This document shows, one piece after another, positions 7,088-50,595 of a stretch of DNA of 64,000 nt (position 1 is the stretch's first letter; each line of letters begins with the position of its first letter). Origin of the DNA: Candidatus Woesearchaeota archaeon B3_Woes (GTDB lineage: Archaea > Nanobdellota > Nanobdellia > Woesearchaeales > B3-WOES); assembly GCA_005222965.1 (NCBI GenBank), contig NJBG01000001.1, positions 737,533-801,532 of the forward strand, in the 5' to 3' direction. The notes beneath the pieces were generated by a model, which worked only from the letters and a program-made list of their open reading frames with translations, made no database searches and was not told where the DNA came from. Position numbers and translations under genes: made by a program.

Positions 7088-7654
7088 ATGAAAAAGAGAC
7101 ACGATATTGCTTTAATTCTTATTGTATTATTAGGAATTGCTACTATTGGTTTTTCTTTATATGATTACTTAAATAAAGAAGAAGTTCAAGAAGTTGCTGT
7201 TGAAGAAGTTTCTGAAGAACCTGTTGTTGAAGAACCAAAACTACTAGGCCCTAACGAAGTTCTAATTCAAATCTTTAGAAACAAATTTGACAAAACAGAA
7301 ATTACAATTGAAACAGGAACAAAAGTTATATGGAAAAACATGGACACAAGACGCCATATGATTACTAATAAAAGATTAGGTTTGTTTAGAACAATGAGAA
7401 AATCTCTTGAATATGGAGATACTTTTGAGTATACTTTTAATGAACCTGGTATTTATGAAATTCTAGAAGCCAATTTCGGTATTAATGGATATGTTATTGT
7501 TGAAGAACCAAAACCAAATCTAATAACTGGTTATGTTGTTTCTAATCTAGAACTAAATGGCCTAAGTTTCCTTCTAATTTCTATAAATCTTTTTGTTATA
7601 ACCGCATTGGCCTTAGTAATCGGCTTTCACATCTCTAGAAAACAGCAGAAATAA
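7088..7654 (+). CDS. Membrane-anchored cupredoxin-like protein; its 3' end is the repeated unit of the cassette array
   Basis: N-terminal TM, ITIETGTKVIWKN...FEYTFNEPGIY, C-terminal TM ending ALVIGFHISRKQQK; similar to 288..764. Confidence 0.75.
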   Translation: MKKRHDIALILIVLLGIATIGFSLYDYLNKEEVQEVAVEEVSEEPVVEEPKLLGPNEVLIQIFRNKFDKTEITIETGTKVIWKNMDTRRHMITNKRLGLFRTMRKSLEYGDTFEYTFNEPGIYEILEANFGINGYVIVEEPKPNLITGYVVSNLELNGLSFLLISINLFVITALALVIGFHISRKQQK

Positions 7655-7660
7655 TTAATT
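7587..7660 (+). repeat. Gene-tail repeat copy 1 (inside the intact gene)
   Basis: ...gccttagtaatcggctttcacatctctagaaaacagcagaaataattaatt. Confidence 0.95.
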
Positions 7661-7738
7661 AATTACTTTGTTTTAATAACCTAACACAATCTTAAAAAAT
7701 CTCCTCTATTCATAATCTTTTATTGATAAGTGAGAAAA

Positions 7739-8788
7739 CTATTTACTGTAAATTTGTTCAAGAGTTGCTAAAGTTAAAGGTTTATTTCCTAAACCTAATT
7801 GTTCTGCATTTTGAAAAAAACCACCAATATACAATATTCTTCTTTTATCAGTTTCAAAAAATAAATTTTGTTTTTCAGCTTCTGTAATATTGTGGTCTAT
7901 TGCTTTTTGTGTTATACGTTGGGTAGATATTTTCTGTTTTAATTGCTCAAAACTATTTTTATCTCCATAAATTAATCTTCCTGCAAATAAAGGATCAGTA
8001 ACACCAATGTCTAAATTATCAGATAATTGAGCGAATTCTTCTCTATTAAGTTCATAAATATTAAGATAACCATTAAAAAAATTAGTTGAAGGATTAGAAG
8101 AAACAACAAATAAGTCAATGTCACTCTCGGGTTTTTGAGAGCCATAAAGAACAACAAAATCAACATTATCAAAAGCAGAATCATATAATTTTTTAACAAC
8201 ATCTATAACTTTGTTATCATCATAAAACTTTGGAAATCCAAGCTGAGACATAAAACCAAATCTTGTAAGTCTTAATTCAGCATCATGAAAAAATTCAAAC
8301 AAAGATACATAATCCTCTGGCAATCCATCTTTTTTCAATTGCCATATTCTTACATTATCAGTTTCTTCACAAAGCAACGCTTCAAGCCATACAGCAAACC
8401 CTTCATAATTATCAATATTTGTTTTACACAAACCCAGAGATTGTTCTTGTGAATTAACTTCATCAAACAAAAAAGATCCTTCATCGCCATTACTCTGAAT
8501 GATATCAACTAATTGTTTGCCAATTTGGGAATGTTCACAAAACAAACCATGACCAAAAAACTCATGAAAAACATTTGAAATTAAAACAGGGCTATCAGTT
8601 CTAACATAAGCAGAATAAGAAGCAGGAACATACAAACCAACACTATTCACATCAAAACCATTAACTTGACAAAAATGTTGCCAATTTTCTGGAGAATAAG
8701 GTTTAAGTTGAGATTGTTGTAATTGTAAGTCGAATTCAGACGAAATGAAAGAAGATGCTTCGAATAGTAGGGAATCTAATGATGACAT
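7739..8788 (-). CDS. Nucleotidyltransferase-domain protein with N-terminal HExxxH region
   Basis: FHEFFGH...EGFA; YGSQKPESDIDLFV (GS-x-DxD); start refined to ATG 8788. Confidence 0.7.
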   Translation of the reverse strand: MSSLDSLLFEASSFISSEFDLQLQQSQLKPYSPENWQHFCQVNGFDVNSVGLYVPASYSAYVRTDSPVLISNVFHEFFGHGLFCEHSQIGKQLVDIIQSNGDEGSFLFDEVNSQEQSLGLCKTNIDNYEGFAVWLEALLCEETDNVRIWQLKKDGLPEDYVSLFEFFHDAELRLTRFGFMSQLGFPKFYDDNKVIDVVKKLYDSAFDNVDFVVLYGSQKPESDIDLFVVSSNPSTNFFNGYLNIYELNREEFAQLSDNLDIGVTDPLFAGRLIYGDKNSFEQLKQKISTQRITQKAIDHNITEAEKQNLFFETDKRRILYIGGFFQNAEQLGLGNKPLTLATLEQIYSK

Positions 8789-8795
8789 TTTTAAT

Positions 8796-9161
8796 TTAGT
8801 CAAATCCCGAATAATCTGCTATTTTTTTTATTTCATCTATAAGTTCACTTCTGCTAGCTTCGTCGGTTCGAATAATTACTTCAATTGTTTCTGGCAAGAA
8901 GATTATGTCCACATCATACTGATTGTTTTCTGTATGTTCCACTCCTGAATATTTTTTATCAATTTTATGCTTCTCACTTCCTATAGACATAATTGGATGT
9001 GCTTCCTCATAGAAAAAAGATGTTTTTTGGAGATTTAGTTTTTCTAAAAAAATAGGAAAAATGTAGAAAAATTGTTCTATTTCATTTTTAGAGAACTTGA
9101 AATAATTTCTTCTATTTTCATTTCCAAGTCCAATAAGTTTAATTTTTTTTATTTCTCCCAT
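8796..9161 (-). CDS. Hypothetical protein
   Basis: 121-aa ORF overlapping its upstream neighbour. Confidence 0.6.
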   Translation of the reverse strand: MGEIKKIKLIGLGNENRRNYFKFSKNEIEQFFYIFPIFLEKLNLQKTSFFYEEAHPIMSIGSEKHKIDKKYSGVEHTENNQYDVDIIFLPETIEVIIRTDEASRSELIDEIKKIADYSGFD

Positions 9162-9511
9162 GGTACTCTAACTAGTTCTACTCCTGGAATTTTTATTGAA
9201 GTATGTCCTCCGTAAGGATTGTCATACCTATCTATTTTAAAGGTGTCATGGACATCACCACCCAACCCAGTTTGGTTTCCATAAGGAATAACAACAGGGT
9301 TTATAGGACTTGATGGTAAACCTGGAATCTGTCCAACGTTTCCAGCCATTTCACTTCCAGCAGGACAGTCACACATTGAGTTCCATATACAGTACAAAGC
9401 AGTTGTTCCTGCTGTATACACATCTATTGTTTCATACCTTTTTGCTTGTCCGGTTGTTGGAACAAGTTCCAACATTTGTTCTAAAACTTGACTTTCCATT
9501 TTGTTCCCCAA
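9149..9511 (-). CDS. Hypothetical protein
   Basis: 120-aa ORF (ATG at 9499 is an alternative start); first gene of the minus-strand trio. Confidence 0.6.
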   Translation of the reverse strand: MGNKMESQVLEQMLELVPTTGQAKRYETIDVYTAGTTALYCIWNSMCDCPAGSEMAGNVGQIPGLPSSPINPVVIPYGNQTGLGGDVHDTFKIDRYDNPYGGHTSIKIPGVELVRVPWEK

Positions 9512-9620
9512 AAGTTTTTCAGTCTATTGATTAATATTTAATGTAAAGCATAGTAACTATAAATAATTTGTGGTGATTCATCTGGAAGATTTAGAAAACA
9601 ATAATCACTTAACAAATTTT

Positions 9621-9689
9621 CTTTTTGTTATCACAACAGCCTTAGTAATCACATTTCACATCTCAAGAAAACAACAGAAATAATTAATT
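9621..9689 (+). repeat. Gene-tail repeat copy 2
   Basis: Reads LFVITTALVITFHISRKQQK* with no start codon. Confidence 0.95.
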
Positions 9690-9763
9690 CTTGAGAAAAA
9701 ATTTAACAATCTATTTTTCTAAATATTATTAAAAGAAAGGTTTTATAAAGGATAAGTAATTAA

Positions 9764-9781
9764 TTTTACCAAATGGTAAAA
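9764..9781. promoter_or_regulatory. Palindrome over the start codon, candidate autoregulatory operator
   Basis: TTTTACCA-AA-TGGTAAAA, downstream of GAAAGG-TTTTATAAA BRE/TATA. Confidence 0.55.
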
Positions 9782-10363
9782 AAAGTTACTAAAACTAAAA
9801 TTATAGCTCAATATAGTGATGATTACAATAAAAAATATTATTTAAGGGAATTAGCGGTTTTATTAAAAAAACCCCATCAAACAATAAAATCTTATATTAA
9901 AGAATTAGTAAAAGAAGGAATATTAACTAAGAACGAAAGAAAAAATATAATTGAGTATAGCCTTAATTTTAAAAATAAACAAATATATGATTATTTGGTT
10001 ATTGCTGAAAAGGAAATATTAATAGAAAGGTTAAAAGAAGAAACCCTTTTAAAGGTTTTATTTGAAAAACTTTCTTCTTTTTTTACAAATAATACTTTTC
10101 TTATTTTTGGATCATCAGTAGAAAAACTTCAGAAAGAATCAGATATTGATTTACTTATTATTGGAAAAGCAAATATTAATAAAAATATAAAAGAGTTTGA
10201 GGAAATCTATAATAAAAAAATACACAAAGTTCAAATTAACAATTTAAATAAATTAACTAGTACTTTAACTAAAGAAATATATAAAAAACACCTTATTATC
10301 AATAATACTGAGCAGATTATAAGATTTTTTGGAGGATTATATGAACAAAATAAAATGGTGTAA
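9773..10363 (+). CDS. wHTH + minimal nucleotidyltransferase (MNT antitoxin)
   Basis: YLRELAVLLKKPHQTI HTH; IFGSS...ESDIDLLIIG. Confidence 0.85.
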   Translation: MVKKVTKTKIIAQYSDDYNKKYYLRELAVLLKKPHQTIKSYIKELVKEGILTKNERKNIIEYSLNFKNKQIYDYLVIAEKEILIERLKEETLLKVLFEKLSSFFTNNTFLIFGSSVEKLQKESDIDLLIIGKANINKNIKEFEEIYNKKIHKVQINNLNKLTSTLTKEIYKKHLIINNTEQIIRFFGGLYEQNKMV

Positions 10364-10808
10364 AAAACAAGGAAGAGGGATTAAGCTTCAAGATCCTAAT
10401 AATAATCTTAGTGAAGAGTATTATGAAAATGCAGAAGAAAGTTTAAGGGTTTTAAGAAACATCACAGAAACAAAATCAAAGATGTGGCTTGCAACTACAA
10501 AATATTATATTGAGTATTTTGCTGTTTATTCTGTATTGATGAAAATAGGAATTAAGTGCGAGATTCATGATTGCACTATAGCTTTAGTGAAGTTTTTTGA
10601 AGATGAAGATATTATAGAAAAAGGAACAGCTAAAATTCTGGAAAACGATAAGGAATTAAGAATAGACAACCAGTATTACCTTAAAAATAAGCCTGTTAAT
10701 ATTGATTTTGGAAAGTTATCAGATTTTTTAATATCAATAAGAAGATCTTTAGATAAACTAGATAATGATAAGATAGCTAAACTAATAAAGAAAATTAAAG
10801 GATTTTAG
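10341..10808 (+). CDS. HEPN-domain protein (putative toxin)
   Basis: YYIEYFAVYSVL, CEIHDCT, RIDNQYY; overlaps the MNT gene; start refined to ATG 10341. Confidence 0.8.
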   Translation: MNKIKWCKKQGRGIKLQDPNNNLSEEYYENAEESLRVLRNITETKSKMWLATTKYYIEYFAVYSVLMKIGIKCEIHDCTIALVKFFEDEDIIEKGTAKILENDKELRIDNQYYLKNKPVNIDFGKLSDFLISIRRSLDKLDNDKIAKLIKKIKGF

Positions 10809-10827
10809 AAGTTTTTGAAAAACTTAA

Positions 10828-10890
10828 AATCTTTTTATTATAACAACAATAGCCTTCCACATCAGCCGAAAACAGCAGAAATAATTAATT
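10828..10890 (+). repeat. Gene-tail repeat copy 3
   Basis: Reads NLFIITTIAFHISRKQQK* using AGC-CGA in place of TCT-AGA. Confidence 0.9.
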
Positions 10891-11030
10891 CTTGAGAAAA
10901 ATATTCAACTATATATTTCTAGTTCCGACATCCTAAAAATATAGCTCATTTATATACTTTTCGCGCTACATTCAACTTTTTTATAAATAAAATAGAAAAA
11001 TTTATATACTAGATATATCTACATTTAACT

Positions 11031-11654
11031 ATGAAAAATGAAGAAATTCTCAAAAAACTTGAAGGAATTCAAACCATTGAAACAGTAATGGATTCGTTAA
11101 GCGTAAACAAAGAGAAAGCTATCTATTACATTCATAGGTTGCGCAAAATAGGTTATGTCAAAACTAAAAAATTAAGCAACAATAAGAGAGTATACAACAT
11201 ATCATTTGAAAATAGATTAAAAGGAATTAGTTATTATGAAATCATAAATAAGCATTCCCCTATAAAAATATCAACTCCTAAAACATACAGGATTTATGGA
11301 AAAGAACCAACCCTTGAAGAAACATTAGTTTATGCAATTAAAACACAAAGCTTTAGGATCATACTTGCAGCTTTAATATTATTTAAGAAAATTGACGACT
11401 GGGTTAGTCTATATCAACTAGCAAAGAAAAATCATATTGAGAGACAGGTAGGCGCTCTTTATGATGTTGCTAGAAGAATAATGCTAACAAGAAGAATGAC
11501 AAATAGATTTAGAAATAATGCCTTGCCAAAAAAAGATTATCAATGGAGATCTGTTATCCCAGAATTAAAATCTGATGATTTCAAAAATATTGAGAAAATG
11601 TGGAAAATATATCTCCCCTTTAATAAAAAAGATATGGAGGCTTACAAAAAATGA
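11031..11654 (+). CDS. HTH-containing AbiEi-like antitoxin/regulator
   Basis: N-terminal HTH-like segment; ATGA-coupled to a nucleotidyltransferase gene. Confidence 0.55.
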   Translation: MKNEEILKKLEGIQTIETVMDSLSVNKEKAIYYIHRLRKIGYVKTKKLSNNKRVYNISFENRLKGISYYEIINKHSPIKISTPKTYRIYGKEPTLEETLVYAIKTQSFRIILAALILFKKIDDWVSLYQLAKKNHIERQVGALYDVARRIMLTRRMTNRFRNNALPKKDYQWRSVIPELKSDDFKNIEKMWKIYLPFNKKDMEAYKK

Positions 11655-12313
11655 TTTCAATAGAAGCACAACAAAAATTACTTCTTAATATCTCACGAAG
11701 ATTAAAGAAACCAATAACAGCTTATGCTATTGGGGGAACTGCAATGATGTTCCTTGGATTTAAAGATTCCACTCTTGACATAGACCTTGTATTCGAAAAC
11801 AAGCAGGATCGTGAAATATTTGAGAAAGCTGTTAAAGAAATTGGCTACAGAGAGATGGATTCAGTAATAGTGTATGGAACAAAGCAAAATCAACCAAAAA
11901 TGTTTACATTAGGGGATGAAAGATTGGATCTTTTTGTAATGCATGTGATTGATTTTGATTTTTCTAAGAAAATGATGGAACGAGCAGAACAAACTCATCA
12001 ATTTAATAATAATCTTCTTTTAAAGATTGCGAATCCTCACGACCTTATTTTAATGAAATGTGCTACTGATAGAAAGAAAGATATTGATGATGCAAGAAGA
12101 ATGATCAATAGTACAAAAATAGATTGGAACATTCTAATTAATGAAGCGAAAACACAGATAAGACTTGGAAGACATACTGCTGCTTTTGATTTAGGAGAAT
12201 TTTTAGAGAAACTCAAATACAAAATGAAAATAAATATTCCAAAAGAAGTTCTAGATGATTTATTTGAAATAGTTAAAGAACAAGCAGAAGATAAACAAAA
12301 GAAACAAACTTAG
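11651..12313 (+). CDS. AbiEii/DUF6036-like nucleotidyltransferase
   Basis: IGGTAM...TLDIDL, DLILMK..DRKKDIDD. Confidence 0.8.
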   Translation: MISIEAQQKLLLNISRRLKKPITAYAIGGTAMMFLGFKDSTLDIDLVFENKQDREIFEKAVKEIGYREMDSVIVYGTKQNQPKMFTLGDERLDLFVMHVIDFDFSKKMMERAEQTHQFNNNLLLKIANPHDLILMKCATDRKKDIDDARRMINSTKIDWNILINEAKTQIRLGRHTAAFDLGEFLEKLKYKMKINIPKEVLDDLFEIVKEQAEDKQKKQT

Positions 12314-12362
12314 CCCAGAGTTAATTCAGAATATATAATCTTTACTTAATAATAAACCAAAT

Positions 12363-12419
12363 TTAACAGCAACAGCCTTAGTAATCGGCTTTCACATCTC
12401 TAGAAAACAATAGAAATAA
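12363..12419 (+). repeat. Gene-tail repeat copy 4
   Basis: Reads LTATALVIGFHISRKQ*K*. Confidence 0.95.
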
Positions 12420-12703
12420 CCAAGAGAAATATTTAACCACCTATCTTGTCTGAGCACTATGGAAAAGATGACGGTGTCCTCCTTTATTAACGTTTCTATT
12501 TTAAGACTGTGCCCAGACTGGATTCTCCTAACATTAACACATGGTCTAAAAAATGATACAAAAGCTATTGAAGAAAACGAATCTATCTAAAAAACAATTC
12601 AAAACTTAGAAGAAGAACCAGAACCAAACTTCATAATGTACACACTAACAATTCTTGCAATGTTTGTTTTTGGTTTATTTTGCTTTTAGTAAAAAGAAGT
12701 GGA

Positions 12704-14056
12704 TTATTTGACGATTCTTATATTTTTCACATTAGTAAATTGTATAAAACCCATCTTTGAAAAAATAAATCCTAATCCACTTTTTTTCCTTCCACCCCAT
12801 GGACATTGATCGGAGGAGCCCCCTATTTTATTTATTCCAACAGTAAAATAATCTAATCTTTTGGCAACATCTTTTCCTTTTTTAATATTTTTTGTCCAGA
12901 CAGATGCTGTTAGACCAGTTTCATAAGAATTAACAATTGATATGACATCATTTATATCATTAAATTCACTAATTGTTATTAAAGGTGCAAGATATTCTTC
13001 CCTTAGTGATATCACACGTTTCAAATTTACGGATAAGATAGTGGGTTCTAAAATATTTTTTTTAAACTCCCCACCATACACCAATTTGTAATTCTTATTA
13101 CTTATTAATTCTTTAACTTTTTTTATTTGTTTTTGGGTCTTTAAAGGACCTATTTTTATATTTGGATTAAGAGGATCACCCATTTCTAGTTTTTTTATTT
13201 CTTCTTTTAAGTCATTAATAAAATCATTCCTTATTTTTTTATGAATAAAAACTTTTCTTACATTATTACAGGCTTGTCCAGAATTTTTTGTGAAACCCAT
13301 GATTAAATTTTTAATCGCGTATTTAGCATCAGCATCTTGCAAAACTAACATCACATCATTACCACCTAATTCAAGAATGAGTTTTCTAATATTTGTTGAT
13401 GAAACTTGGTATATTTTTTTGCCAACATTATAACTTCCTGTAAATGATATCATATCTATATTACTTTTCGTTATATAATTTCCTTGTTCAGAACCACCCA
13501 TTACAAGAGAGAATATATTCTCATCGATCCCAGCAGATCTCATAATTTCTTTTATTTTCAGACCACACAAAGGAGATAATTCAGATGGTTTGAACATTAC
13601 AACATTTCCACAAATAAGAGCAGGTATAATACTCCATAAAGGGATATTTATAGGATAGTTCCAACCAGTTATAACACCAACAGCACCAATTGGTTCAAAA
13701 ATTATATGATTTGTTGTTTTTTCATCGATTTTTATTTTCTCTTCTTTGAAATATTTTTCAGAATTATTCAAAAAAAAATTTAACCTAGATACAATCATAT
13801 CTATAGATATTAACGATTCTTTTATCGGCCTACCTATTTCCAAACTAATTAATTTAGCAATTTCCTCTTTTTTTTCTAAAATCTTTCTTGGTACACTTCT
13901 AAGTAGTGAGATTCTTTTACTAAGTTCTAACTGTGACCAGTAAACAAATCCCTTTCTTAATTTTTTTATCTTTTTATCAATATCTATTTTAGAATCGCAA
14001 CCTAATTTCCCAATAATTTTATTATTAAAGGGATTATAACTTTTTATATATTTCAT
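12704..14056 (-). CDS. Aldehyde dehydrogenase
   Basis: GWNYP, KPSE, FTGS, LELGGN, GQAC, WGGRKKSG. Confidence 0.93.
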   Translation of the reverse strand: MKYIKSYNPFNNKIIGKLGCDSKIDIDKKIKKLRKGFVYWSQLELSKRISLLRSVPRKILEKKEEIAKLISLEIGRPIKESLISIDMIVSRLNFFLNNSEKYFKEEKIKIDEKTTNHIIFEPIGAVGVITGWNYPINIPLWSIIPALICGNVVMFKPSELSPLCGLKIKEIMRSAGIDENIFSLVMGGSEQGNYITKSNIDMISFTGSYNVGKKIYQVSSTNIRKLILELGGNDVMLVLQDADAKYAIKNLIMGFTKNSGQACNNVRKVFIHKKIRNDFINDLKEEIKKLEMGDPLNPNIKIGPLKTQKQIKKVKELISNKNYKLVYGGEFKKNILEPTILSVNLKRVISLREEYLAPLITISEFNDINDVISIVNSYETGLTASVWTKNIKKGKDVAKRLDYFTVGINKIGGSSDQCPWGGRKKSGLGFIFSKMGFIQFTNVKNIRIVK

Positions 14057-14060
14057 TTCA

Positions 14061-15320
14061 TCAATACACTTTTTTAATAAATTCGTTTATGTTCATACCT
14101 TTTTCAATCAATTTCATACCATCATCAACCATTATTATATTAGGTTTTAGATATACAAAATTTTCAGACATACTTAGAGTATATGAACCACAATTCAGTA
14201 TAACCATGCAATCATTTTCCTTTATTTTATAAGATTGAATATTTCTTGAAATAACTCCAGCAGTAGACCCAATCCCATCCCCTATATTTATAATTTCCTT
14301 TCCTTCTGTTTTTGTACATGAGATTGGATAGAATCTATTATGTCTTGTTGGTATAAGTATGTTGGTACCAATATCTACAATAACCCACTTTTTTCCAACA
14401 CTCTTCTTTTTTGTTATAACATTTGTTAAGGCAGCAAATGCATCATTTACAATGTATCTGCCGGGTTCTAATATCAACTCTCCATCAAAATTATATTTCT
14501 TCAATATCTTTGATATCCTAGCAGCAAAAAACTCCATAGAACAATTTTTATTTTTTATTAGGAAATTTGAATTAAACCCACCCCCTATATCAATAAATTT
14601 TATATCTATTTCTTTTGATTTAAGGAATTTATAGAATTTACAAAGTTCTTCAGCAACTCTACAGTGCATATTAGGGGAAACTTCGTTTGCTAAAACATGG
14701 CAATTTAAGCCAACCAAGTTTAAGTTTTTTAATTTTTTGATATCTTTTACTAATCTAAAGGCTTCTCCAGATTTGATATCTATCCCTAGTTTTTCTCCCC
14801 TATTAACAAAAAGACTGTTATCCTTAATGTCTGGATGAACTCTTAAACCAACATTAACAACCTTGTTCATTTTTTTGGCAAGGTAGTTTATTTTATTTAT
14901 CTCTGATAAAGAATCACAATTTATACACTTGATTTCCTCTTTTATAACTAACTTTAGTTCTTGCTCTGTTTTAGCACAGCCATTGAAAATAATATCTTTC
15001 TTATCAAAACCGATTTTTCTGCCATATATGTATTCTATATCTGAGAGGATCTCTATTTTTAATCCTTCCTTTTTTATTTTTTCACATATTTTTCTTAAAT
15101 AACACGCCTTTAATGCATAATGTATATTAGTATTCTTATAATATTTCCTAAAAGCCTTTTTAATTTCTTTGATATTTCTCAATAAAGTTTTTTCAGAATA
15201 TAGAATTATGGGGGTATCAAATTTAGATAAAATTCTTTTATAGTTGATGTTATTTATGTGTATCTGATTATCTATATATTTCATCTCTTTTAATGAATTA
15301 ATTATCTTTTCCATTTTCAA
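14061..15320 (-). CDS. PLP-dependent group IV (LysA/ODC-like) decarboxylase, divergent
   Basis: YALKA, FNGCAK, GLRVHP, DIGGG, EPGRY, GSYT; no GPxC motif. Confidence 0.85.
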   Translation of the reverse strand: MKMEKIINSLKEMKYIDNQIHINNINYKRILSKFDTPIILYSEKTLLRNIKEIKKAFRKYYKNTNIHYALKACYLRKICEKIKKEGLKIEILSDIEYIYGRKIGFDKKDIIFNGCAKTEQELKLVIKEEIKCINCDSLSEINKINYLAKKMNKVVNVGLRVHPDIKDNSLFVNRGEKLGIDIKSGEAFRLVKDIKKLKNLNLVGLNCHVLANEVSPNMHCRVAEELCKFYKFLKSKEIDIKFIDIGGGFNSNFLIKNKNCSMEFFAARISKILKKYNFDGELILEPGRYIVNDAFAALTNVITKKKSVGKKWVIVDIGTNILIPTRHNRFYPISCTKTEGKEIINIGDGIGSTAGVISRNIQSYKIKENDCMVILNCGSYTLSMSENFVYLKPNIIMVDDGMKLIEKGMNINEFIKKVY

Positions 15321-15957
15321 AGAGTTTAGTGGGATTTATTTTTAGCTTTGAAATAATTTTTCCTGAAAAAGTTGGTTTGAAAATAGCATCTTCTGGAATA
15401 GTTTCATTAGATTTTATAAAATTTCCATTATTGTTCAACTCAGAATAAGTTATACTTTCTTTATATAATATATCGAAATTATCTTTTTTAACGAATATGA
15501 TTCCAGGTATTTCATCAGAATGGAAGGGTTCTTTTTTTATCTCTCCAATAAAAATGAATAATAACAAACCCCACTTACCATCTTTATTAGGATCCCCCGG
15601 CATTCCTGGAGAGATAAACTCCACAACATAGGCAGGACCATCTTTTATTTTTAATATTCCTTTTTCATTGTTTTCTTTTATGTGTGTTGTGTCTTTTAAG
15701 GGCATAATTTTAATTTCTTGTAGGATTTCCTCTTTTACTTCTCTTAAAGCAGCACGCAAAGGGGATTCTTTTTGTTCTATCCTACCTCCCACACAACTAA
15801 AACCTATCTGAGTCATATTATTACGCTTTTTCCAGTATTTGGATTTATTTATAGCAAAAATAAAGAAATCTTGAAACTTTACAATAGTTGTAGACCCAGC
15901 TATAATAGGTATAGAAGAAAATCTTTTTTTGAAATTTATAAGCAGTTTATTATACAT
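15298..15957 (-). CDS. NUDIX hydrolase
   Basis: Nudix box GGRIEQKESPLRAALREVKEEI. Confidence 0.85.
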   Translation of the reverse strand: MYNKLLINFKKRFSSIPIIAGSTTIVKFQDFFIFAINKSKYWKKRNNMTQIGFSCVGGRIEQKESPLRAALREVKEEILQEIKIMPLKDTTHIKENNEKGILKIKDGPAYVVEFISPGMPGDPNKDGKWGLLLFIFIGEIKKEPFHSDEIPGIIFVKKDNFDILYKESITYSELNNNGNFIKSNETIPEDAIFKPTFSGKIISKLKINPTKLFENGKDN

Positions 15958-15974
15958 ATCACCTAATATCTTCT

Positions 15975-16050
15975 TTAGATTTATAAATGTTTTTATGTTT
16001 AATCATATTTACTACTGGTGAGTAAAATAAAACAAAAGATTTATAAATTC
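15975..16050. promoter_or_regulatory. Divergent archaeal TATA promoters
   Basis: TTTATAAA at 15980-15987 and 16040-16047, each ~22 nt from the flanking ATG, with A-rich BRE-like flanks. Confidence 0.6.
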
Positions 16051-16068
16051 TGATCTTATACTAAACAT

Positions 16069-17859
16069 ATGCACCATAAAGAAATTACCAATATTTTCTT
16101 GAATTATTTTATAGATAGAGATCATCATTTATTACCAAATCAATCTTTAATACCATCTGAATCTGATTCATCTGGTCTTTTTATAAACTCAGGTATGCAC
16201 ACAATAAAACCTTATTTTTATGGAATAGAAAAACCTCAAAAAAGTAAGCTATGTTCAATACAAAAATGTTTAAGAACAATAGACATTGATAATGTTGGAT
16301 ATAACAGAAGGACTTTAACACTCTTCTCTATGTTAGGCAGTTGGTCAATAAATGATTATTGGAAGGAAGATGCTATTCCACTTGCTTATGAATTATTAGT
16401 AGATAGTTTTGGTTTTGATCCAAATAAGTTAAGTGTTACTTATTTTGAAGGAGATGATAAAGTACCTGAAGATTTAGAAACAAAGGCAGAATGGGAAAAA
16501 GTTGGAGTCCCAGAAGAAAGGATTATAAAATTGGATGGAAAGAACAATTTTTGGTCTGCAGGACCTACAGGTTTATGTGGGCCTTGTACAGAAATTTATT
16601 TTGATAGAGGAGAAGAATATGGTTGCGGAGAAGAAACATGTAAACCTAGTTGTGATTGTGATAGGTATTTGGAAATATGGAATGCAGGGGTATTTATTCA
16701 ATATGACAGACAAAAAGATGGTAGCTTAAAGACTCTCCAACTTATAAGCGTGGATACGGGTGCAGGTCTTGAAAGAATAGCAACTATCTTACAAGGCAAG
16801 GATTCAGTATATGACACCACCATATTTAAACCAATCGTTTCCAATATAATCAGTTCTTGCAGTATAGAAAAAGAAGACTTATCATCAGAAAATAAATATG
16901 TTAGAATCATAGCAGACCATTTAAGAGCCTCAACATTCTTACTAGCCGAAAACATTATTCCAAGCAACATTGATAGAGGTTATGTTTTGAGGAGACTTTT
17001 GAGGAGATCAATAAATCATGCTTCAAGTTTAGGTATTGAGAAAGATGGTCTAGTTGGTGTTGTTGATAAAATAATCCTCAATGAGGGTGAAGAACATACA
17101 TATCTTCAAGAGAACAAGGATATAATATTACTTAATTTTGCTAGAGAATATGATGGATTCATCAAAACCCTAAATAAAGGTAAGAAAAAATTAATGCAAG
17201 CAATTGAAGGATTATTTCAAGGAAGTGAACTGGAATCACAGATAGCATTTAATCTTTTTGATACTTATGGATTCCCATTTGAATTGACAGAGGAAATTTG
17301 TAAACAGAAAGGAATAATAGTTAATCAAAACACATTTAAGGACTTATTACAAGAACACAAAGCCAAATCAAGAGCTGGTTTTCAAAAAAAGTTTAGTTCT
17401 GGTTTAATGACCAGTTCATATATCTGTGTGAAATATCATACTGCAACACATTTACTACATCAGGCTTTGAGGGATGTTTTAGGTGAAGAGGTTGAACAAA
17501 AAGGGAGCAATGTTACCCCAGAAAGATTAAGATTTGATTTTTCATTCCAAAGACCTTTAACACCTGAAGAAATTTCTAATGTAGAAGAGATAGTAAATCA
17601 AAAGATAAAATCTAATTTAAAAATCACAAAAAAAGTAACAAGTTTAGAAGAGGCAATTGCCTCAGGGGCGATAGCATTATTTCAAGATAAGTATGATAAA
17701 AAAATTAATGTCTACTCAATAGGGGATTATTCTAAAGAGGTTTGTAAGGGGCCACATATCCAAGAAACCTCTGAATTAGGGAATTTTAAAATTATTAAAG
17801 AAAAAAGTTCTTCATCAGGTATTAGGAGAATAAGAGCAGTACTAAAAGAGGAATTTTAA
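16069..17859 (+). CDS. alaS: Alanyl-tRNA synthetase-like protein (short form lacking C-Ala)
   Basis: NSGM, QKCLR, GPCTEI, DTGAGLER, RGYVLRR, DTYGFP; editing motifs HTATH and CKGPH. Confidence 0.85.
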   Translation: MHHKEITNIFLNYFIDRDHHLLPNQSLIPSESDSSGLFINSGMHTIKPYFYGIEKPQKSKLCSIQKCLRTIDIDNVGYNRRTLTLFSMLGSWSINDYWKEDAIPLAYELLVDSFGFDPNKLSVTYFEGDDKVPEDLETKAEWEKVGVPEERIIKLDGKNNFWSAGPTGLCGPCTEIYFDRGEEYGCGEETCKPSCDCDRYLEIWNAGVFIQYDRQKDGSLKTLQLISVDTGAGLERIATILQGKDSVYDTTIFKPIVSNIISSCSIEKEDLSSENKYVRIIADHLRASTFLLAENIIPSNIDRGYVLRRLLRRSINHASSLGIEKDGLVGVVDKIILNEGEEHTYLQENKDIILLNFAREYDGFIKTLNKGKKKLMQAIEGLFQGSELESQIAFNLFDTYGFPFELTEEICKQKGIIVNQNTFKDLLQEHKAKSRAGFQKKFSSGLMTSSYICVKYHTATHLLHQALRDVLGEEVEQKGSNVTPERLRFDFSFQRPLTPEEISNVEEIVNQKIKSNLKITKKVTSLEEAIASGAIALFQDKYDKKINVYSIGDYSKEVCKGPHIQETSELGNFKIIKEKSSSSGIRRIRAVLKEEF

Positions 17860-17882
17860 TATTAACTAGTTTTGAATACAAA

Positions 17883-19082
17883 ATGAGAATAAAACTTGAT
17901 AAAACCCCAATAAAAAAATTTCAAAAGGAAAATGGTTTTGTTCTATACAATCCACTGAACCACGAGATAGTGTTTAACAAATCAAATCTCCAACCAGCGG
18001 ATGATATATTCTTAGATTCTATTACACTAGAAAGACCTAAATTAAAAAAGGCAAGAGTTGAGCTAACTTTAGGGTGTAATGCTGCATGCAAATATTGTGT
18101 TGTTTTTAAAAATGATGTATCAAATATTGGAAAAACGATGAATCATGGAACAGCTAGAAATATTGCGGCCTTTTTTAATGAAAATATGATGGGTGGTACA
18201 CTCATGTTGATAGGGGGCGAACCCTTGGATGCGTGGGACATAACAAAATATCTCTTTGAGTCTTGTGAAGCAGGAGAGAAAGTACTTTTTACTAATGGTA
18301 CTTTGGTAACTAAAGAGTATGCTAAATTTTTATCTGACCAAAAAGTATTGGTTTTGGTTTCATTAGACGGTATGCATCAACATAACACTCAAAGAGTATA
18401 TTCAGATGGACGCGAGATTTTCGGTGATACAATAAGGGGTCTTCGAACTTTACAAGATGCAAATTCAAAAATCGCTATATCTGCTGTTGTTACAAACCAT
18501 AATGTTTATGATCTTGCAGATATAGTAGAGTTCTATCATAAAGAGCTTAGTGTGGATTCAGTGGGTTTAACAACCCCCCATCATATAAATAATTTTGACT
18601 TTGCACTAGATATAAAAGAATATACTAATCAAATGTTAAATATATTTTCATATTCACAAGAAAATAATATTTATATAGATCAGATAGCAAAGAGAATTAA
18701 AGCTATAGCTCACCAGGATTTTAAAGATAGGGCGTGTAAAATATCGGGAGATCAAATTACTTTTTATCCAGATGGTACAACTAGTCTATGCATAAAAATA
18801 GATAAAATACCTAAATTAAAAGACAAAAAGGCAGATTATTATTTCGAAAAATTGCCAATCTTTGACTCTAGTTGCGTGGAGTGTACTGCTATAGGTGTTT
18901 GCGGAGGAGGTTGTTATTTAGATGCTTTTTATGATCCTACTGGTAGGGATCAAAGGGATTGTTATTTTTACCCAAAATTAGTTGAGCATATTATATGGGA
19001 TATGAAAGACTTAGTTGATGAAAAAGGCAAAATATCCAAAGAAAAAAGGATCCTAAAATACAAGGGTATGTTACATGAATAA
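17883..19082 (+). CDS. Radical SAM/SPASM protein
   Basis: CNAACKYC, GGEP, SLDG; C-terminal C...C, CVECTAIGVCGGGC...C. Confidence 0.92.
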   Translation: MRIKLDKTPIKKFQKENGFVLYNPLNHEIVFNKSNLQPADDIFLDSITLERPKLKKARVELTLGCNAACKYCVVFKNDVSNIGKTMNHGTARNIAAFFNENMMGGTLMLIGGEPLDAWDITKYLFESCEAGEKVLFTNGTLVTKEYAKFLSDQKVLVLVSLDGMHQHNTQRVYSDGREIFGDTIRGLRTLQDANSKIAISAVVTNHNVYDLADIVEFYHKELSVDSVGLTTPHHINNFDFALDIKEYTNQMLNIFSYSQENNIYIDQIAKRIKAIAHQDFKDRACKISGDQITFYPDGTTSLCIKIDKIPKLKDKKADYYFEKLPIFDSSCVECTAIGVCGGGCYLDAFYDPTGRDQRDCYFYPKLVEHIIWDMKDLVDEKGKISKEKRILKYKGMLHE

Positions 19083-22000
19083 CGTATTAAAAGAGATAGA
19101 AAGGATAAAGAGTAGTGAGAAAATCCTATTTAAATTGGATAAAAATAAAAAATATAAAATCACTCTTTGTTATCCAGATACCTATACAACAGGTATGCCA
19201 AACTTAGGAATCCAATATTTCTTCAAAGAAATTAACACAAGGAATGATTTTTTTGCTGGCAGGTGTTATTTGCCTAATAAAAAGGTTTGGAAAAAAATAG
19301 TAGAGTGTAATCTACCTTTATATGATTGGGATTCTTTGGAAGAATTAAAAAATTCTGATATACTTTCTTTTACAGTTTCTTTTGAAGATGAATTTGTGAA
19401 TATCGTAAGAATGTTAAAATTTGCAGGAATTAATCCCATCGCTTCAGAAAGGAAAGAAAAAGGTCCTTTGATAATTGCAGGGGGTCCGTGTTCTAGTTAT
19501 AATCCTGAACCATTTTCAAAATTTATAGATGCTTTTGTTATAGGTGAAGGAGAAACAATGATACATAAATTGCTAGATATTTACAAGAATTCTGAGGATA
19601 AAAAAAGTTTTCTTAGAAATATAGATGTTTTAGAATCTGTCTATGTCCCTTCATTCTATGATTTCGAGTTTGAAGGCAAAAGAATAAAAAAAATTATCAT
19701 AAATGGAAAGGAAAATGTTTATAGAAACTATGTTAAAAATCTCGACAAATCCCCTATTTGTTCTACAATAATAAATAAAAAATCACAATATAAAGAAGAA
19801 GTTTTCTCAATAGAAGTTTCAAGAGGATGCAGGATGCATTGCAGGTTTTGTTATATAGGTAACCATTTTAGAAAACAAAGGGTGTTATCTCTCAACAAAA
19901 TAAAAGAACTCATTAATGAAGGGAAAAAATATACAAAAAACATAAAACTTTTTTACGAGGTTTTACCACCTAAGTATTATTCTGATTTATTCAAAGTTTT
20001 ATTGGACTTTGTTAAAAAAGATGACATAAAACTTAAATTAGGATCATTTAGAGTAGAATACCTAAACAGTAATATCGTTAATGTTGTTGCCATGGGTAAC
20101 CAAGACAAGATTATCATTGCTCCAGAAACAAGCGAAGGTAAACTGAGAAATTTCATAAATAAAGGTCAAATGAGCGACGAAAAAGTAAAAAATGCTGTTA
20201 AATTATGTCTCGAAAAAAGCATAAAAAATTTTGGTTTATATCTTATGGTTGGAATACCCACAGAAACCAAAAAAGATATAGACTCTTTGATAAATCTTAT
20301 TATAGATGTTTTTAATATAATAAAGGATAGAAACAAGAAGGGGATTTTAGAAGTCCATATAAATGCATACTTCCCTAAACCACTAACACCTTTGCAGCTG
20401 GAAAGAAACATATCTCAAAAAGAAGCAATAGGAAAAATAGAGTATATACAATCTAAGATTAAAATAAGATTAAATAGTGAGGATTTTAAAAGAGTGCATT
20501 TTAAAACAATAGTTTATGATGAGATATCTTACAGCCAACCCATCCTAACAAGGGGGGATAGACGTCTAGGGAATGTTTTACTTGATGTATGTAAACTAAC
20601 TTATCCTTACACAAACAAAACACCAACACCCGAAATATGGGACTATGCATTAAGAAAAAATAGACTAGAAGCAAAATATTACTATCGTGAAAGGGATTCT
20701 ACTGAAATTATGCCGTGGCATATAATAAAAAATAATACTAGCAAAACCTACTTTATGAGAGAAAGGGAGAGAGCATATAAAGGTCAGCTAACTGATCCTT
20801 GTCATCATTCATCATGTGATGTTTGTAAATCTTGTCTAGATGTAAACCAATTAATGAAGATTGTTATAGTTTGTCCACCATTAAAAGCACCTATAAAATC
20901 ATGGAGATACTGCCCCTATCATAATTGGAAATTTTCTTTTAGTACAGGCGATCATGGTTACTCGGGCGTAAATATGCCTATATGTTTAATTGCTTCTTTT
21001 TTGAGGAAAAAAGGCATTAATGTTGATATTCTTGACGCTTTTTTTGAAGATATTTCGATAGAAGATACTATAGAAAAGATATCTAAATATAGCATTATAG
21101 GGATAACTGTACATTCTAATGTCAATCTTACCGACATAAAAAAAATAATAAAGAAATTAAGAAGTCTAAGAAAAAATCATAAGATAGTACTTGGAGGTCA
21201 CTATCCTTCATATTTCCCTGAGAAATGTATAAATGAGCTAGATGCAGATTTTGTTATAAGGGGAGAAGGAGAAGAATCAATGTTTGAATTAATTCAATGT
21301 TTACAAGAAGGTTTTGATTTAACTAAAGTAAAAGGGTTGACATTTAAACAAAAGGGTAGAATCTTTAGTAACGAACCAAGGGAAAAAATAAATAACCTGG
21401 ATAGTTTACCTTTTATGGCGAGAGATTATATACAAAAAGAACTTGAACTTAAATTTGTCCCTGCTATATCTTCGAGTAGAGGTTGTGATTATTCAGGATG
21501 TTCTTTTTGTGATATTGCTTCTTTTCAAAAAACATCAATTGGTCCTGTTTGGAGAGGGAGATCTGCTAAGAATATAGTAGATGAGATAGAATACATAACC
21601 AAAAAGTGGAAATTTAATAAATTTAAATTTGTTGATCCAAATTTTGTAGGGGGGAAAAATGGGAGAAAAAGAGCTTATAAAATCGCAGACGAAATTATCA
21701 AAAGAGGATTAAAAGTTAGATATATGTTTGACACAAGAGTAGATGAGATTAATAAAAAATTGTTTAAAAAGTTATATAAATCTGGTTTAAGGATGGTTTA
21801 TCTCGGAGTCGAATCCTGTATCCAGAGGCAACTTGATTATTTTAATAAAAATACAACGCTTCAATCAAACAAAAAAGCTATAAAAACTTTAAGAGAGACA
21901 GGCATTATACCTCTTTTTGGAATCATAGTATTTGAACCAACAACAACCCTAGAAGAAATTAGAAAAAACTTTGACTACTTTATTTCGAAAGGTGGATTCA

Positions 22001-22416
22001 ATATTTATAGGTTTGTTAGAGGAATTATTCCTAGATTTGGTACACCTATGATGGATATGTTCGAAAAACAAGGCATACTCATAAAATCTTATCCTGACTA
22101 TAAATACAAATTCGAGAATAAAGAAGTAAGGGTACTTTTTAATAAATCAGATATATATGCACAAAATGTTTTTTTGATTGAAAAAAAGTATAAAGAAAAA
22201 ATATTGAAAAAAATATCAAAAGAAATTAACAGACCTTTCTTTTTACATTTAGAGAGATTCCTAAAACAAAAAACCATTGAACATTTTGAACTTTTATTAA
22301 AGGAGTTTGAAATAAACAAAGATGTTTCTCCTCAACTTATAGATAAAATGATCAAAAATTTTAGTAAAGAAATAGAAACAGAATTTAAAACTAAATTAGA
22401 AAATGCCAAGATTTAG
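19075..22416 (+). CDS. Fused double radical SAM protein (two B12-binding-like + radical SAM modules)
   Basis: SRGCRMHCRFC and SRGCDYSGCSFC, each preceded by AGGP/LGGH...GEGE; Cys-rich linker. Confidence 0.9.
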   Translation: MNNVLKEIERIKSSEKILFKLDKNKKYKITLCYPDTYTTGMPNLGIQYFFKEINTRNDFFAGRCYLPNKKVWKKIVECNLPLYDWDSLEELKNSDILSFTVSFEDEFVNIVRMLKFAGINPIASERKEKGPLIIAGGPCSSYNPEPFSKFIDAFVIGEGETMIHKLLDIYKNSEDKKSFLRNIDVLESVYVPSFYDFEFEGKRIKKIIINGKENVYRNYVKNLDKSPICSTIINKKSQYKEEVFSIEVSRGCRMHCRFCYIGNHFRKQRVLSLNKIKELINEGKKYTKNIKLFYEVLPPKYYSDLFKVLLDFVKKDDIKLKLGSFRVEYLNSNIVNVVAMGNQDKIIIAPETSEGKLRNFINKGQMSDEKVKNAVKLCLEKSIKNFGLYLMVGIPTETKKDIDSLINLIIDVFNIIKDRNKKGILEVHINAYFPKPLTPLQLERNISQKEAIGKIEYIQSKIKIRLNSEDFKRVHFKTIVYDEISYSQPILTRGDRRLGNVLLDVCKLTYPYTNKTPTPEIWDYALRKNRLEAKYYYRERDSTEIMPWHIIKNNTSKTYFMRERERAYKGQLTDPCHHSSCDVCKSCLDVNQLMKIVIVCPPLKAPIKSWRYCPYHNWKFSFSTGDHGYSGVNMPICLIASFLRKKGINVDILDAFFEDISIEDTIEKISKYSIIGITVHSNVNLTDIKKIIKKLRSLRKNHKIVLGGHYPSYFPEKCINELDADFVIRGEGEESMFELIQCLQEGFDLTKVKGLTFKQKGRIFSNEPREKINNLDSLPFMARDYIQKELELKFVPAISSSRGCDYSGCSFCDIASFQKTSIGPVWRGRSAKNIVDEIEYITKKWKFNKFKFVDPNFVGGKNGRKRAYKIADEIIKRGLKVRYMFDTRVDEINKKLFKKLYKSGLRMVYLGVESCIQRQLDYFNKNTTLQSNKKAIKTLRETGIIPLFGIIVFEPTTTLEEIRKNFDYFISKGGFNIYRFVRGIIPRFGTPMMDMFEKQGILIKSYPDYKYKFENKEVRVLFNKSDIYAQNVFLIEKKYKEKILKKISKEINRPFFLHLERFLKQKTIEHFELLLKEFEINKDVSPQLIDKMIKNFSKEIETEFKTKLENAKI

Positions 22417-23140
22417 TATGAGTGAATGGAAAAAAGAAGGATTTGATATTAGAATATTAGATAAACCCGTCCAATATGCGAATCTAGACAGGATGTGTTT
22501 GACACACCCCTGCTATTTTCATTTTAATAATTATCAAGCGAGCAATTTTTATTCATTAGAATCTGTTTTTGATGGAGGACTTAAATTTTTAGTTCTTGCT
22601 TTTCCAAAAAATAAAGATTTGAGTAGAAAATCAAAATTTGATGTAGATTCAATAGATGATTATATAGCCTTTTATAAGAGTATAAATGGTAATGATTATG
22701 AATTTAATTTTGTTGAACAGATAGAGGGTATAAAAAAAGGGTTTGTAGGGGTTGCTATTTCAGATGAAAAAGGCAATGTTTTGATAGAGTGTTATAAACA
22801 ACCTTATGAAACAAATGTATATAAATTTACTAGCGGATCATGCGATCCAGTTAACATTTCTTCTTTTTTATTTATGGATTATGGAGATTTAACTTTAGCA
22901 GATGTTGGTAAAGCAAAACCTTCTTTGAGAATACTCAAGGATATTGAGCAAAAAGTCGATCTTTTTTTTGGATACTTTGAATTCATTTATGGAAAAACAG
23001 AACATCTAGGAGAATGCATCTATTTTACAGATCATCAAACAGACAAGAATTTTTTAAGCAGTCTTTATTCTTCCATGGATGAACTAGGAAATGTAACAAA
23101 AAGATTAAATGCTAGTATAATAAAATCTTGTTTAGATTAA
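22403..23140 (+). CDS. Hypothetical protein, last gene of the biosynthetic operon
   Basis: 245-aa ORF overlapping the upstream gene. Confidence 0.7.
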   Translation: MPRFSMSEWKKEGFDIRILDKPVQYANLDRMCLTHPCYFHFNNYQASNFYSLESVFDGGLKFLVLAFPKNKDLSRKSKFDVDSIDDYIAFYKSINGNDYEFNFVEQIEGIKKGFVGVAISDEKGNVLIECYKQPYETNVYKFTSGSCDPVNISSFLFMDYGDLTLADVGKAKPSLRILKDIEQKVDLFFGYFEFIYGKTEHLGECIYFTDHQTDKNFLSSLYSSMDELGNVTKRLNASIIKSCLD

Positions 23141-23274
23141 TGAATCTTTCTTCGTTCTGCCACTAAAGTTTCCATTTTATGTATCTATTATAATTTTTGT
23201 TTTATTAAACTGAAAAAATTCTTTAAAACCCATTTAAGAATATTATATTTTGGTTTATATAAATGTATAGTACA

Positions 23275-23334
23275 ATCACAACAACAGCCTTAGTAATCGG
23301 CTTCCACATCTCTAGAAAACAACAGAAATAATTA
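23275..23334 (+). repeat. Gene-tail repeat copy 5
   Basis: Reads ITTTALVIGFHISRKQQK*. Confidence 0.95.
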
Positions 23335-23339
23335 TTTAT

Positions 23340-24188
23340 TTATCTTATACTAACTTGTTGTTGCTTTTGTACACATTCCTTTCTGTACATTTTTACTCTT
23401 TTTATCAACTGCTTTTCTTCTTTGTCTAATCTTCGCTTTTGTGAATAAAGCTCTAATCCTCTATCAAAAGCCCCTACTGCTTCATCATACTGTTCTAATA
23501 ACATAAGAGACCTTCCTATTCCAATGTCAAAAAAAGGAAAATTTGAGTCAATACACTTTCCTTTATTAAAATATAATAAAGCTAATTTAGGATTTTCTTT
23601 ACCTAAATATACATTACCAATACTTTGGTAATTTTCCTTCGCTTTTTTGTCTGAATTAAGAGTTTCTTTAAATGAGTCTAGTGCTTCATCCAATCTCCCT
23701 TGGAAATGATATGCAAGTCCAATATTATAGGTTGTTATAGGATGCCCACCACTTAATACATTAGCAGATTTAAAAGCCTCTAATGCTTCATCATATTTTC
23801 CTTGATTAAGTAACTTTTTACCTATTGCATTCATATTTCCACCAGCTCTTGATAAATCAGATAAAACAGACCTTCCTTTTAATCCATTATCAACAGCCAA
23901 ACCAAACTCAGATAAAGATGCATCATAATATTCATCAACATCTTCTTCATATAGTTGACTTAATTCAAAATGTAAATTAGGATCTTTAGGTTTTTCTTCT
24001 ATTCTTTGTTGTAATTGTGATATTCTTGATTCTAAAGAATTACCTATTTGTTCTTGTACAAAACTTCCATCTAAAGAACCACTTGCTTGTTCTTGTCCAA
24101 AAACTTTAGAAAGATAGGAAAAAGCAGAAGCTAATACAACTCCTTTTGCTACATCTTTTCCTAATCCTAAAAACTCTCTTCTATTCAT
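23340..24188 (-). CDS. TPR protein with twin-arginine-like N-terminus
   Basis: MNRREFL; repeated GKYDEAL / YNIGLAY / GNVY TPR patterns. Confidence 0.8.
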   Translation of the reverse strand: MNRREFLGLGKDVAKGVVLASAFSYLSKVFGQEQASGSLDGSFVQEQIGNSLESRISQLQQRIEEKPKDPNLHFELSQLYEEDVDEYYDASLSEFGLAVDNGLKGRSVLSDLSRAGGNMNAIGKKLLNQGKYDEALEAFKSANVLSGGHPITTYNIGLAYHFQGRLDEALDSFKETLNSDKKAKENYQSIGNVYLGKENPKLALLYFNKGKCIDSNFPFFDIGIGRSLMLLEQYDEAVGAFDRGLELYSQKRRLDKEEKQLIKRVKMYRKECVQKQQQVSIR

Positions 24189-24330
24189 ACTCTTCTATTG
24201 ACAAAACTACTATATAAATCTTTCGTTTTTGTAATAACTTACTAGTGAGGACAAAAACATATATAACAAATTACAGAATATGTAATCCATTACAGAAATC
24301 TTTAAAAACAAACAAATATAACACATTACA

Positions 24331-44598: not shown

Positions 44599-44813
44599 TT
44601 TTGAATAATATTATCCATATATGATATATAAACTTTTCGTTTTGAGAAGTTTATGAAAATCTTTTACCATAATTGCATAATGTATTCAAAATCAAATTAC
44701 ACATATTATGAAATCACATATAACCAAAAATAAAAATATTTATATATATCAAACATATTAACATTCTAAGGGTGGAACACACACTAATCAATCTAATCTT
44801 TTAACTTAAAACA

Positions 44814-44963: not shown

Positions 44964-44991
44964 ACAAAAATTGAATAACTTATTGGATTTT

Positions 44992-50587: not shown

Positions 50588-50595
50588 AGAATAAA

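Follow-up and report, generated by a model that had tools for sequence, protein, structure and literature searches.

The 64,000-nucleotide (nt) stretch of the genome of Candidatus Woesearchaeota archaeon B3_Woes that was analyzed here (contig NJBG01000001.1, positions 737,533 to 801,532; hereafter "the window") contains an array of gene cassettes at the 3' end of a protein-coding gene that we call gene X (7088..7654). Every cargo boundary in this array is marked by a direct copy of the gene X 3' end, and gene X itself is intact. In relatives of the locus, the site is found empty, cassettes are gained, lost or differently ordered at a 30-nt core within the repeat, and the cassettes are more conserved than the flanks. 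We favor, with middling confidence, site-specific recombination at this core by a trans-acting recombinase over homologous recombination. This preference arises because the repeat has a fixed right edge, the bare core suffices as a boundary, one base at core position 21 splits the sites, arms are shared between cassettes, and the cassettes are better conserved than their surroundings.

The original prediction held that the tail of gene X is present in five copies in direct orientation, and it was correct, with coordinates right to a few bases. The copies end at 7654, 9683, 10884, 12419 and 23331. A repeat search of the window returned a 76-nt family at 7585-7660, 9614-9689 (80%), 12350-12425 (74%) and 23262-23337 (76%), and a 54-nt family from the same search brings in the fifth copy at 10848-10901; the repeat lengths vary between copies from ~55 to 76 nt. 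Written as an IUPAC pattern, the 30-nt core matches five times in the 64-kb window, always on the + strand (7625, 9654, 10855, 12390 and 23302), and in 100 shuffles of the window the mean number of matches was 0.00 and the maximum 0. Read in frame, the copies give ..ALVIGFHISRKQQK followed by the stop, or variants thereof; the third copy is missing 12 nt, and the fourth has an internal stop. The whole-genome search that had been proposed found only these five array copies, with no further core in the 1,021,708 bases of the assembly (4 contigs; 96% complete). An archaeal small-subunit rRNA model matched this genome full-length at 1404.7 bits, which is not proof alone because the model also scores in bacteria.

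Searching metagenomes with the core pattern yielded 20 contigs. Two of them (L046 and L050) show no likeness beyond the pattern and were set aside as chance; the 18 true contigs comprise eight AT-rich relatives of the locus and ten with GC-rich DNA beside the core. The proposal that relatives be compared for changes in cassette presence, absence and order at the repeat boundaries had a positive outcome, and empty sites exist as well. In L035 and L042 (~83% identical), the site is empty: MscS is followed by a gene X with the same tail, which abuts a TPR gene and the conserved downstream genes. An empty site also appears in two sequencing runs (X3 and X4), where one contig joins window position 7654 to 23874 with 503 other letters between them. 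In L034, L036 and L039, the left arm of tail copy 4 (termed "type A") and its core abut the TPR gene, and the 10.8-kb unit (cassette 4) is absent. L031 has a type A arm and core and then a TPR-like gene, and L039 has two TPR genes with a bare core between them. Other cargo can lie behind the same tail; the gene-proximal position is held by cassette 1 in the window and, in L047/L048 (one contig), by genes for MBL-fold and DUF4440 proteins, which follow gene X and its core and are succeeded by a type A arm, a core and a LigT-like gene. The gene X orthologues of L035, L042 and L047 have the same tail. Finally, in L041, unit 3 (94.5% identical) precedes a longer gene-X-like tail, after which come a different MNT/HEPN unit, a core and the TPR gene, so that the units are arranged otherwise than in the window.

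Contigs from four public sequencing runs (marine and marine-sediment metagenomes, each with 5-7% of the sampled words) allow cassettes and flanks to be compared, with identities that derive from the matches listed, i.e. the longest pieces, and are thus indicative, not exhaustive. Among these, environmental contigs match cassettes 2 and 3 at 93-98% identity (cassette 2, 96-98%; cassette 3, 93-96%; examples of differing letters are 10/303, 4/202, 13/334 and 34/868), whereas identity in the flanks (MscS/gene X, TPR gene) is 84-89% (156/990, 146/907, 37/348 and 93/615). In the comparison of metagenome loci, cassette 3 is 94.5% identical versus 86.8% for the TPR block. The core pattern had no match in 400 other genomes of the order and none in viral contigs. 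In the only other genome of the same family, the gene X orthologue is 61% identical, has a different tail, and lies on a short contig.

These comparisons bear on the notion that the array is a static relic, built long ago by integrase-carrying elements or by local duplication of the tail and TPR gene, and subject only to decay and deletion since. Such a history would suit the damage to tail copies 3 and 4, the TPR relic at 7655-7730, the truncated cores in L063 (a bacterial contig described below), and the lack of an integrase. However, we consider it improbable, given that the gene-proximal cargo differs among relatives (cassette 1 in the window, MBL/DUF4440 in L047), that the cassettes are closer to environmental contigs than the flanks are, and that cassette 3 ends at the same places in the window and in L041.

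The anatomy of the site was deduced from an alignment of 28 distinct sites, which are mutually related, such that counts over them are not independent. Pairwise identity averages 0.29-0.41 over the 60 nt left of the core, 0.93 within the 30 nt of the core itself (a value inflated by the fact that the sites were found by pattern search), 0.71 at +1..+6, and 0.34-0.38 beyond (0.38 at +7..+36). Conservation hence stops sharply on the right, 6 nt beyond the stop codon, and this edge is not forced by the search pattern. A bare core of ~33 nt suffices as a boundary, as seen at position 918 of L039. Left arms vary: some are the true gene end, some decayed gene-X-like arms, some the type A arm that several sites share, and some just a TPR gene's 5' end; many tails have 55-100 nt of gene-X-like sequence. 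Some arms are common to units with different cargo. One start arm is found in cassettes 2, 3 and 4 and in L048, a second in L041 and L047, and the type A end arm is shared by cassette 4, L048 and the L031/L034/L036/L039 group. The start arms probably also hold promoters. Shared start and end arms would be the expected look of attP arms.

A single base within the core is informative regarding the point of exchange. Position 21 is G in four of four gene-attached tails, but in only one of 12 displaced AT-rich tails (the other 11 have A); in the 13 tails with GC-rich left flanks, it is always A and never G. If cassettes enter at the gene-attached core, then exchange would therefore take place to the right of position 21. 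Judging from the available portion of the report on the ssrA islands of Dehalococcoides (PMC3146451), the same one-base reasoning was used there to place the insertion point.

No dedicated recombinase would be needed if tail-bearing cassettes entered by Campbell-type homologous recombination and were lost or reshuffled between tails, with whole arrays swapped via the conserved flanks. We deem this account possible, albeit somewhat unlikely. It explains losses and shuffling without an enzyme, and it agrees with the lack of a fitting recombinase in the genome and with the 55-100 nt of gene-X-like sequence on many tails. Deletion variants (L037 versus L049) and the L041 junction discussed below look like products of inter-repeat recombination or illegitimate events. 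Further, the same genome has a second integrase-less island, bounded by a 78-nt repeat (C1:919581-919658 and 923465-923542; 98.7% identical) that duplicates the end of a 649-aa gene and ends 3 nt after the stop codon; a genome-wide scan for duplicated gene ends returned only the gene X array and this "RSH island". On the other hand, all cassettes have the same sharp right edge, some boundaries share only ~33 nt (L039), and the G/A split at position 21 would be unexpected if crossovers could occur anywhere in the homology. The shared arms and the conservation of the cassettes relative to their flanks fit less well, and the first acquisition of a tail by unrelated cargo is left unexplained.

If site-specific recombination by a trans-acting enzyme is the correct explanation, the 3' end of gene X would be an attachment site at which small integrase-less cassettes have accumulated in tandem. 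Each cassette would comprise an optional shared start arm, the cargo, a left arm (often a decayed gene X end), and the 30-nt core. We infer that the core of a circular cassette recombines with the core at the gene end, with a crossover within the last ~15 nt, i.e. between core position 22 and 6 nt past the stop codon. The gene end would stay intact, and the cassette's own core would be displaced distally; recombination between two cores would free the cassette again. The recombinase would act in trans, and it could be the integrase of a helper element or an unrecognized enzyme. As far as their candidate sites indicate, it is probably neither of the two resident tyrosine recombinases.

A number of results weigh against this mechanism, beginning with the mutual relatedness of the aligned sites. 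No consistent dyad of the 11-6-11 type was present in the cores of six sites. The second island duplicates the end of a different gene, and so a second specificity would be needed under this model. Separately, nearly all breaks between alleles coincide with repeats, with two exceptions. In L041 (1-135), cassette 3 directly follows a truncated type A arm, with no core in between, a joint that recurs in runs X3/X4 (12358+C+10935). In L033, GC-rich DNA is fused at an arbitrary position to a block made up of 355 nt from the HEPN gene's end (92% identical), the tail and a TPR gene. These exceptions look like deletion or illegitimate events, not the rule. Among the contigs from small shares of the four runs, there was no circle junction; the backward joints that occur are explained by other array arrangements.

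The most conspicuous difficulty is the enzyme. Recombinase and transposase families were absent from the 50 window open reading frames (ORFs) scanned (20 + 30), in accord with the original prediction for the window, and also from the 42 of 67 metagenome-locus ORFs (80 aa or longer) that were scanned. The genome-wide search it had proposed was positive for tyrosine recombinases (PF00589), of which there are only two, XerA (C1:103 kb) and a 217-aa protein (C1:856 kb), both outside the window. It was negative for serine recombinases (PF00239), which had no match in the genome; Cas1 (PF01867) was likewise not found there. A perfect 11-8-11 palindrome directly upstream of xerA (C1:104114-104143) is a candidate dif site. 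The half-site of this palindrome is absent from the five tails, and in the array there are no exact copies and just two with one mismatch, both inside cassette 4. XerA/dif was accordingly rejected as the system of the array, given this distribution and the lack of a consistent core dyad. GC skew did not indicate a replication terminus.

The 217-aa tyrosine recombinase (C1:856107-856920; L076) has only the catalytic domain. Proteins 79-85% identical to it occur in a syntenic setting in three of 40 relatives, which belong to other families, and no relative was found in viral contigs; bacteria in which the core occurs have nothing but Xer-like matches, of ~30% identity. Just upstream of its gene is a conserved 8-6-8 dyad that is unique in the genome and not at the array, and we rejected the protein as the array enzyme on these grounds. 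We also observed that, in this genome, the stretch separating this gene from the conserved gene that follows is ~4.8 kb longer. A cognate integrase was found on no member of the element family, whether in the 50 window ORFs, the 42 of 67 metagenome-locus ORFs or viral contigs.

The locus functions as a cassette array, and the original prediction had called it an "integron-like or tandem-island capture locus". The tandem-island part of this description stands. Membership among the integrons does not: IntI and an attC fold are lacking, and the genes lie on both strands. We hold a classical integron or an Xer/dif-type (IMEX-like) array to be very improbable. With the integron-integrase model TIGR02249, for which the cut-off is 265 bits, the 217-aa protein reaches 65.4. 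A conserved hairpin was not evident in the five tails folded as + strand DNA, which had z-scores of 0.67, -1.14, 0.70, 0.39 and -2.58 and no common structure. For an Xer/dif system, the xerA half-site should not be missing from the tails, and the array lies 640 kb from xerA. Casposon- or CRISPR-like integration was rejected because PF01867 was not found in the genome and the repeat length is not fixed (~55 to 76 nt).

The core is also present in bacterial genomes. GC-rich DNA lies beside it in 10 of the 18 true metagenome contigs and in three of eight genome-contig matches (the other five are chance). In these settings, an AT-rich (~30% GC) TPR gene and the 30-nt core are found inside GC-rich (52-58%) Marinimicrobia-like DNA (L063 8800-11020, in G401:C3; L064, L065, L030, L032, L037, L043-L045, L049 and L051). 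The DNA of this TPR gene is 81-82% identical to window 23293-24042, and its 5' signal-peptide part is GC-rich. As to the identity of the hosts, one genome record is Candidatus Neomarinimicrobiota, and the TrxB of L033 is 94, 75 and 73% identical to the TrxB proteins of three metagenome-assembled genomes. On a 105-kb contig, housekeeping genes (dxs ... CobO to one side, nuoN ... to the other) surround a 2-kb island of 30% GC that comprises two TPR genes separated by a core and flanked by truncated cores. As a unit, TPR gene and core occupy at least four bacterial contexts (CobO-nuoN, YebC-RuvCA, purC and TrxB). In one pair of contigs, the TPR gene between two cores is present in L049 and missing from L037.

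We infer that transfer proceeded from the AT-rich archaeal array to the bacteria, because the island is AT-rich, remnants of a gene-X-derived arm persist in L059, and L033 contains a complete tail. GC-rich hairpins (CCCTCTCC stem) are located to the left of the cores in L030, L032, L037, L040, L043 and L049; against the orphan Rfam motif whalefall-1, the hairpin scores 24.3 bits, below the gathering score of 37. Hairpin sites number 3, 17 and 16 in the bacterial genomes G401, G402 and G403, and zero in the archaeal genome. This dispersal through bacterial genomes led us to reject the hairpin as a part of the site, and the hairpins look like bacterial extragenic palindromes of the REP type. The fullest reading of all these data would be that of an active gene-capture platform in DPANN archaea, in which a host gene's coding end would be the landing site, miniature cassettes would carry its copy, the recombinase would be unrecognized or come from an unseen helper, and fragments of the array (the core and TPR gene; once, in addition, a HEPN piece and the gene-X-derived arm) would have recently crossed into co-occurring Marinimicrobia-like bacteria. 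Taken with all of its parts, this reading is tentative, and we think it unlikely.

Table 1. Features of the gene X array, with positions in the window
Feature	Position	Strand	Description
Target gene X	7088..7654	+	188-aa protein; N- and C-terminal membrane helices, cupredoxin-like middle; last 30 nt = core copy 1 (7625-7654)
TPR cassette relic	7655..7730	-	~37 nt like the TPR gene 3' end fused to ~42 nt like the TPR 5' end, including start codon
Cassette 1 cargo	7739..9511	-	354-aa protein with C-terminal minimal nucleotidyltransferase (NTase) motif; 121-aa and 120-aa proteins, no family matched
Tail copy 2	9614..9689	+	Gene-X-like arm and core, then right arm type 1 (9684-9730)
Cassette 2 cargo	9773..10808	+	Winged helix-turn-helix (wHTH)-MNT (196 aa) and HEPN (159 aa), type VII toxin-antitoxin-like pair
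Tail copy 3	10827..10890	+	12-nt deletion, AGCC core variant; then right arm type 1 (10885-10934)
Cassette 3	10932..12339	+	207-aa putative wHTH protein and 220-aa DUF6036 NTase; block common to L041 (94.5%)
Tail copy 4	12340..12425	+	Left arm type A and core, internal stop; type A arm also in L031, L034, L036, L039, L048
Cassette 4 (10.8 kb)	12426..23276	both	- strand: aldehyde dehydrogenase (ALDH), pyridoxal phosphate (PLP) decarboxylase, Nudix; + strand: second alanyl-tRNA synthetase (AlaRS), radical-SAM/SPASM enzyme, 1113-aa double radical-SAM protein, 245-aa unknown
Tail copy 5	23277..23337	+	Distal boundary of array
Convergent TPR gene	23340..24188	-	282 aa; right-hand neighbor of site; cassette-like in relatives, with core in bacterial genomes

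The features of the array are collected in Table 1. Matches of gene X to Cupredoxin_1 and halocyanin are weak and below the cut-off. The TPR relic is recognized by the 86% identity of 7688-7729 to 24163-24204 and by the alignment of 7655-7693 with the flank on the TPR side in L035 and L042. The cassettes measure 1.2-2 kb, save for one of 10.8 kb, and gene orientation is mixed: cassette 1 and three genes of cassette 4 lie on the - strand. The cargo assignments of the original prediction require some tempering. The "NTase trio" seen in cassette 1 was an overstatement, as only one of its three proteins has NTase matches, weak and below the cut-off, and the 121-aa and 120-aa proteins match nothing. 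The MNT-HEPN assignment of cassette 2 is supported for its MNT half (Polbeta, 32.4 bits, above the cut-off), and the HEPN half scores below the cut-off at 18.6 bits. Of the "AbiE-like pair" in cassette 3, the DUF6036 NTase was found, and its 207-aa partner matched no family.

Cassette 4 is the outlier in size and content. Its AlaRS (window 16069-17859) is the second copy in the genome, 45% identical to the one at C1:268 kb, and it is encoded beside radical-SAM enzymes; it may have a role in aminoacyl-tRNA-dependent biosynthesis or self-resistance. The 1113-aa protein has a full-length match in none of 40 relatives, and cassette 4 therefore looks accessory as well.

Elsewhere in the window, two more small NTase-containing gene pairs are present at 43506-45991, just downstream of a gene for a family-B DNA polymerase (PolB). 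A duplicated gene tail beside these pairs was sought as a further example and was not found. In addition, the window has two instances (24331-30971 and 50309-53733) of a 92-aa gene with a 1045-aa gene behind it, and a subtilase domain is present in the 1045-aa protein of the second instance. The beginnings of a neighboring 1097-aa gene and of the first 1045-aa gene are alike in DNA sequence, as identical stretches of the metagenome query hit both.

The genomes of DPANN archaea are tiny and, to our knowledge, contain few recognized mobile elements, and the means by which these archaea acquire defense and accessory genes is largely unexplained. The locus described here offers a concrete and testable route of acquisition, in that one defined site holds toxin-antitoxin-type and biosynthetic cassettes that differ between close relatives. 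The sharp 30-nt core, the empty-site alleles and the cassette ends allow primers and recombination substrates to be designed directly. Moreover, the same core and its neighboring gene inside bacterial chromosomes could make a recent flow of DNA from archaeon to bacterium traceable.

The closest known kind of system is the tandem accretion of integrase-less islands at a gene 3' end, as represented by cis-mobilizable elements (CIMEs), the ssrA islands of Dehalococcoides, and tycheposons. The present locus is set apart from this kind by its archaeal host, its protein-gene target, its miniature cassettes (1.2-2 kb), which move as units of that size, and the lack of an integrase in any unit seen. 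A search of titles and abstracts turned up no published description of such an array in DPANN archaea, which is not proof of absence. In the part of the CIME literature at hand (PMC5704250), islands related to integrative and conjugative or mobilizable elements (ICEs/IMEs), such as those of the ICESt1 family at fda, have kept attL and attR, have no integration genes, and lie in tandem at the target gene's end. The integrase-less tandem units and the intact target gene are common to both systems, and mobilization in trans or in cis has been proposed for CIMEs. Yet CIMEs, as characterized in the same part of that source, are decayed ICEs/IMEs of many kb in bacteria, usually with an integrase-bearing partner in the array. 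Here, every unit is integrase-less, the same ends are kept across genomes, and the host is an archaeon.

The ssrA islands of Dehalococcoides, in the sections of PMC3146451 available to us, also stand in tandem between direct repeats of the target 3' end, have strain-specific content, and have an insertion point marked by one base. Unlike the array at gene X, in which no unit has a recombinase, they target a tmRNA gene, have a repeat of 20 bp, and include sixteen islands with a serine-recombinase integration module. The tycheposons of Prochlorococcus (bioRxiv 10.1101/2020.12.28.424599, as far as the accessible text describes them) are similar in that newcomers push older elements inward and leave partial target copies between them, in their defense or niche cargo, and in a streamlined host genome without other transfer routes. 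They differ in targeting tRNA genes, in carrying integrases (a tyrosine recombinase in 910 of 937), and in often having replication genes.

Integrons, among them those described from archaea by Ghaly et al. 2022 (PMC9668308), share with this locus an ordered series of small cassettes that each end in a site, and toxin-antitoxin cargo; the excerpts of that report at our disposal also note that integrase-less clusters (CALINs) are known and that sites are shared across domains. The array at gene X departs from integrons in that IntI and a folded attC are lacking and no attI lies next to an integrase gene. Instead, its site is linear, asymmetric and derived from the end of a coding gene, and its cassettes lie in either orientation and probably have their own promoters.

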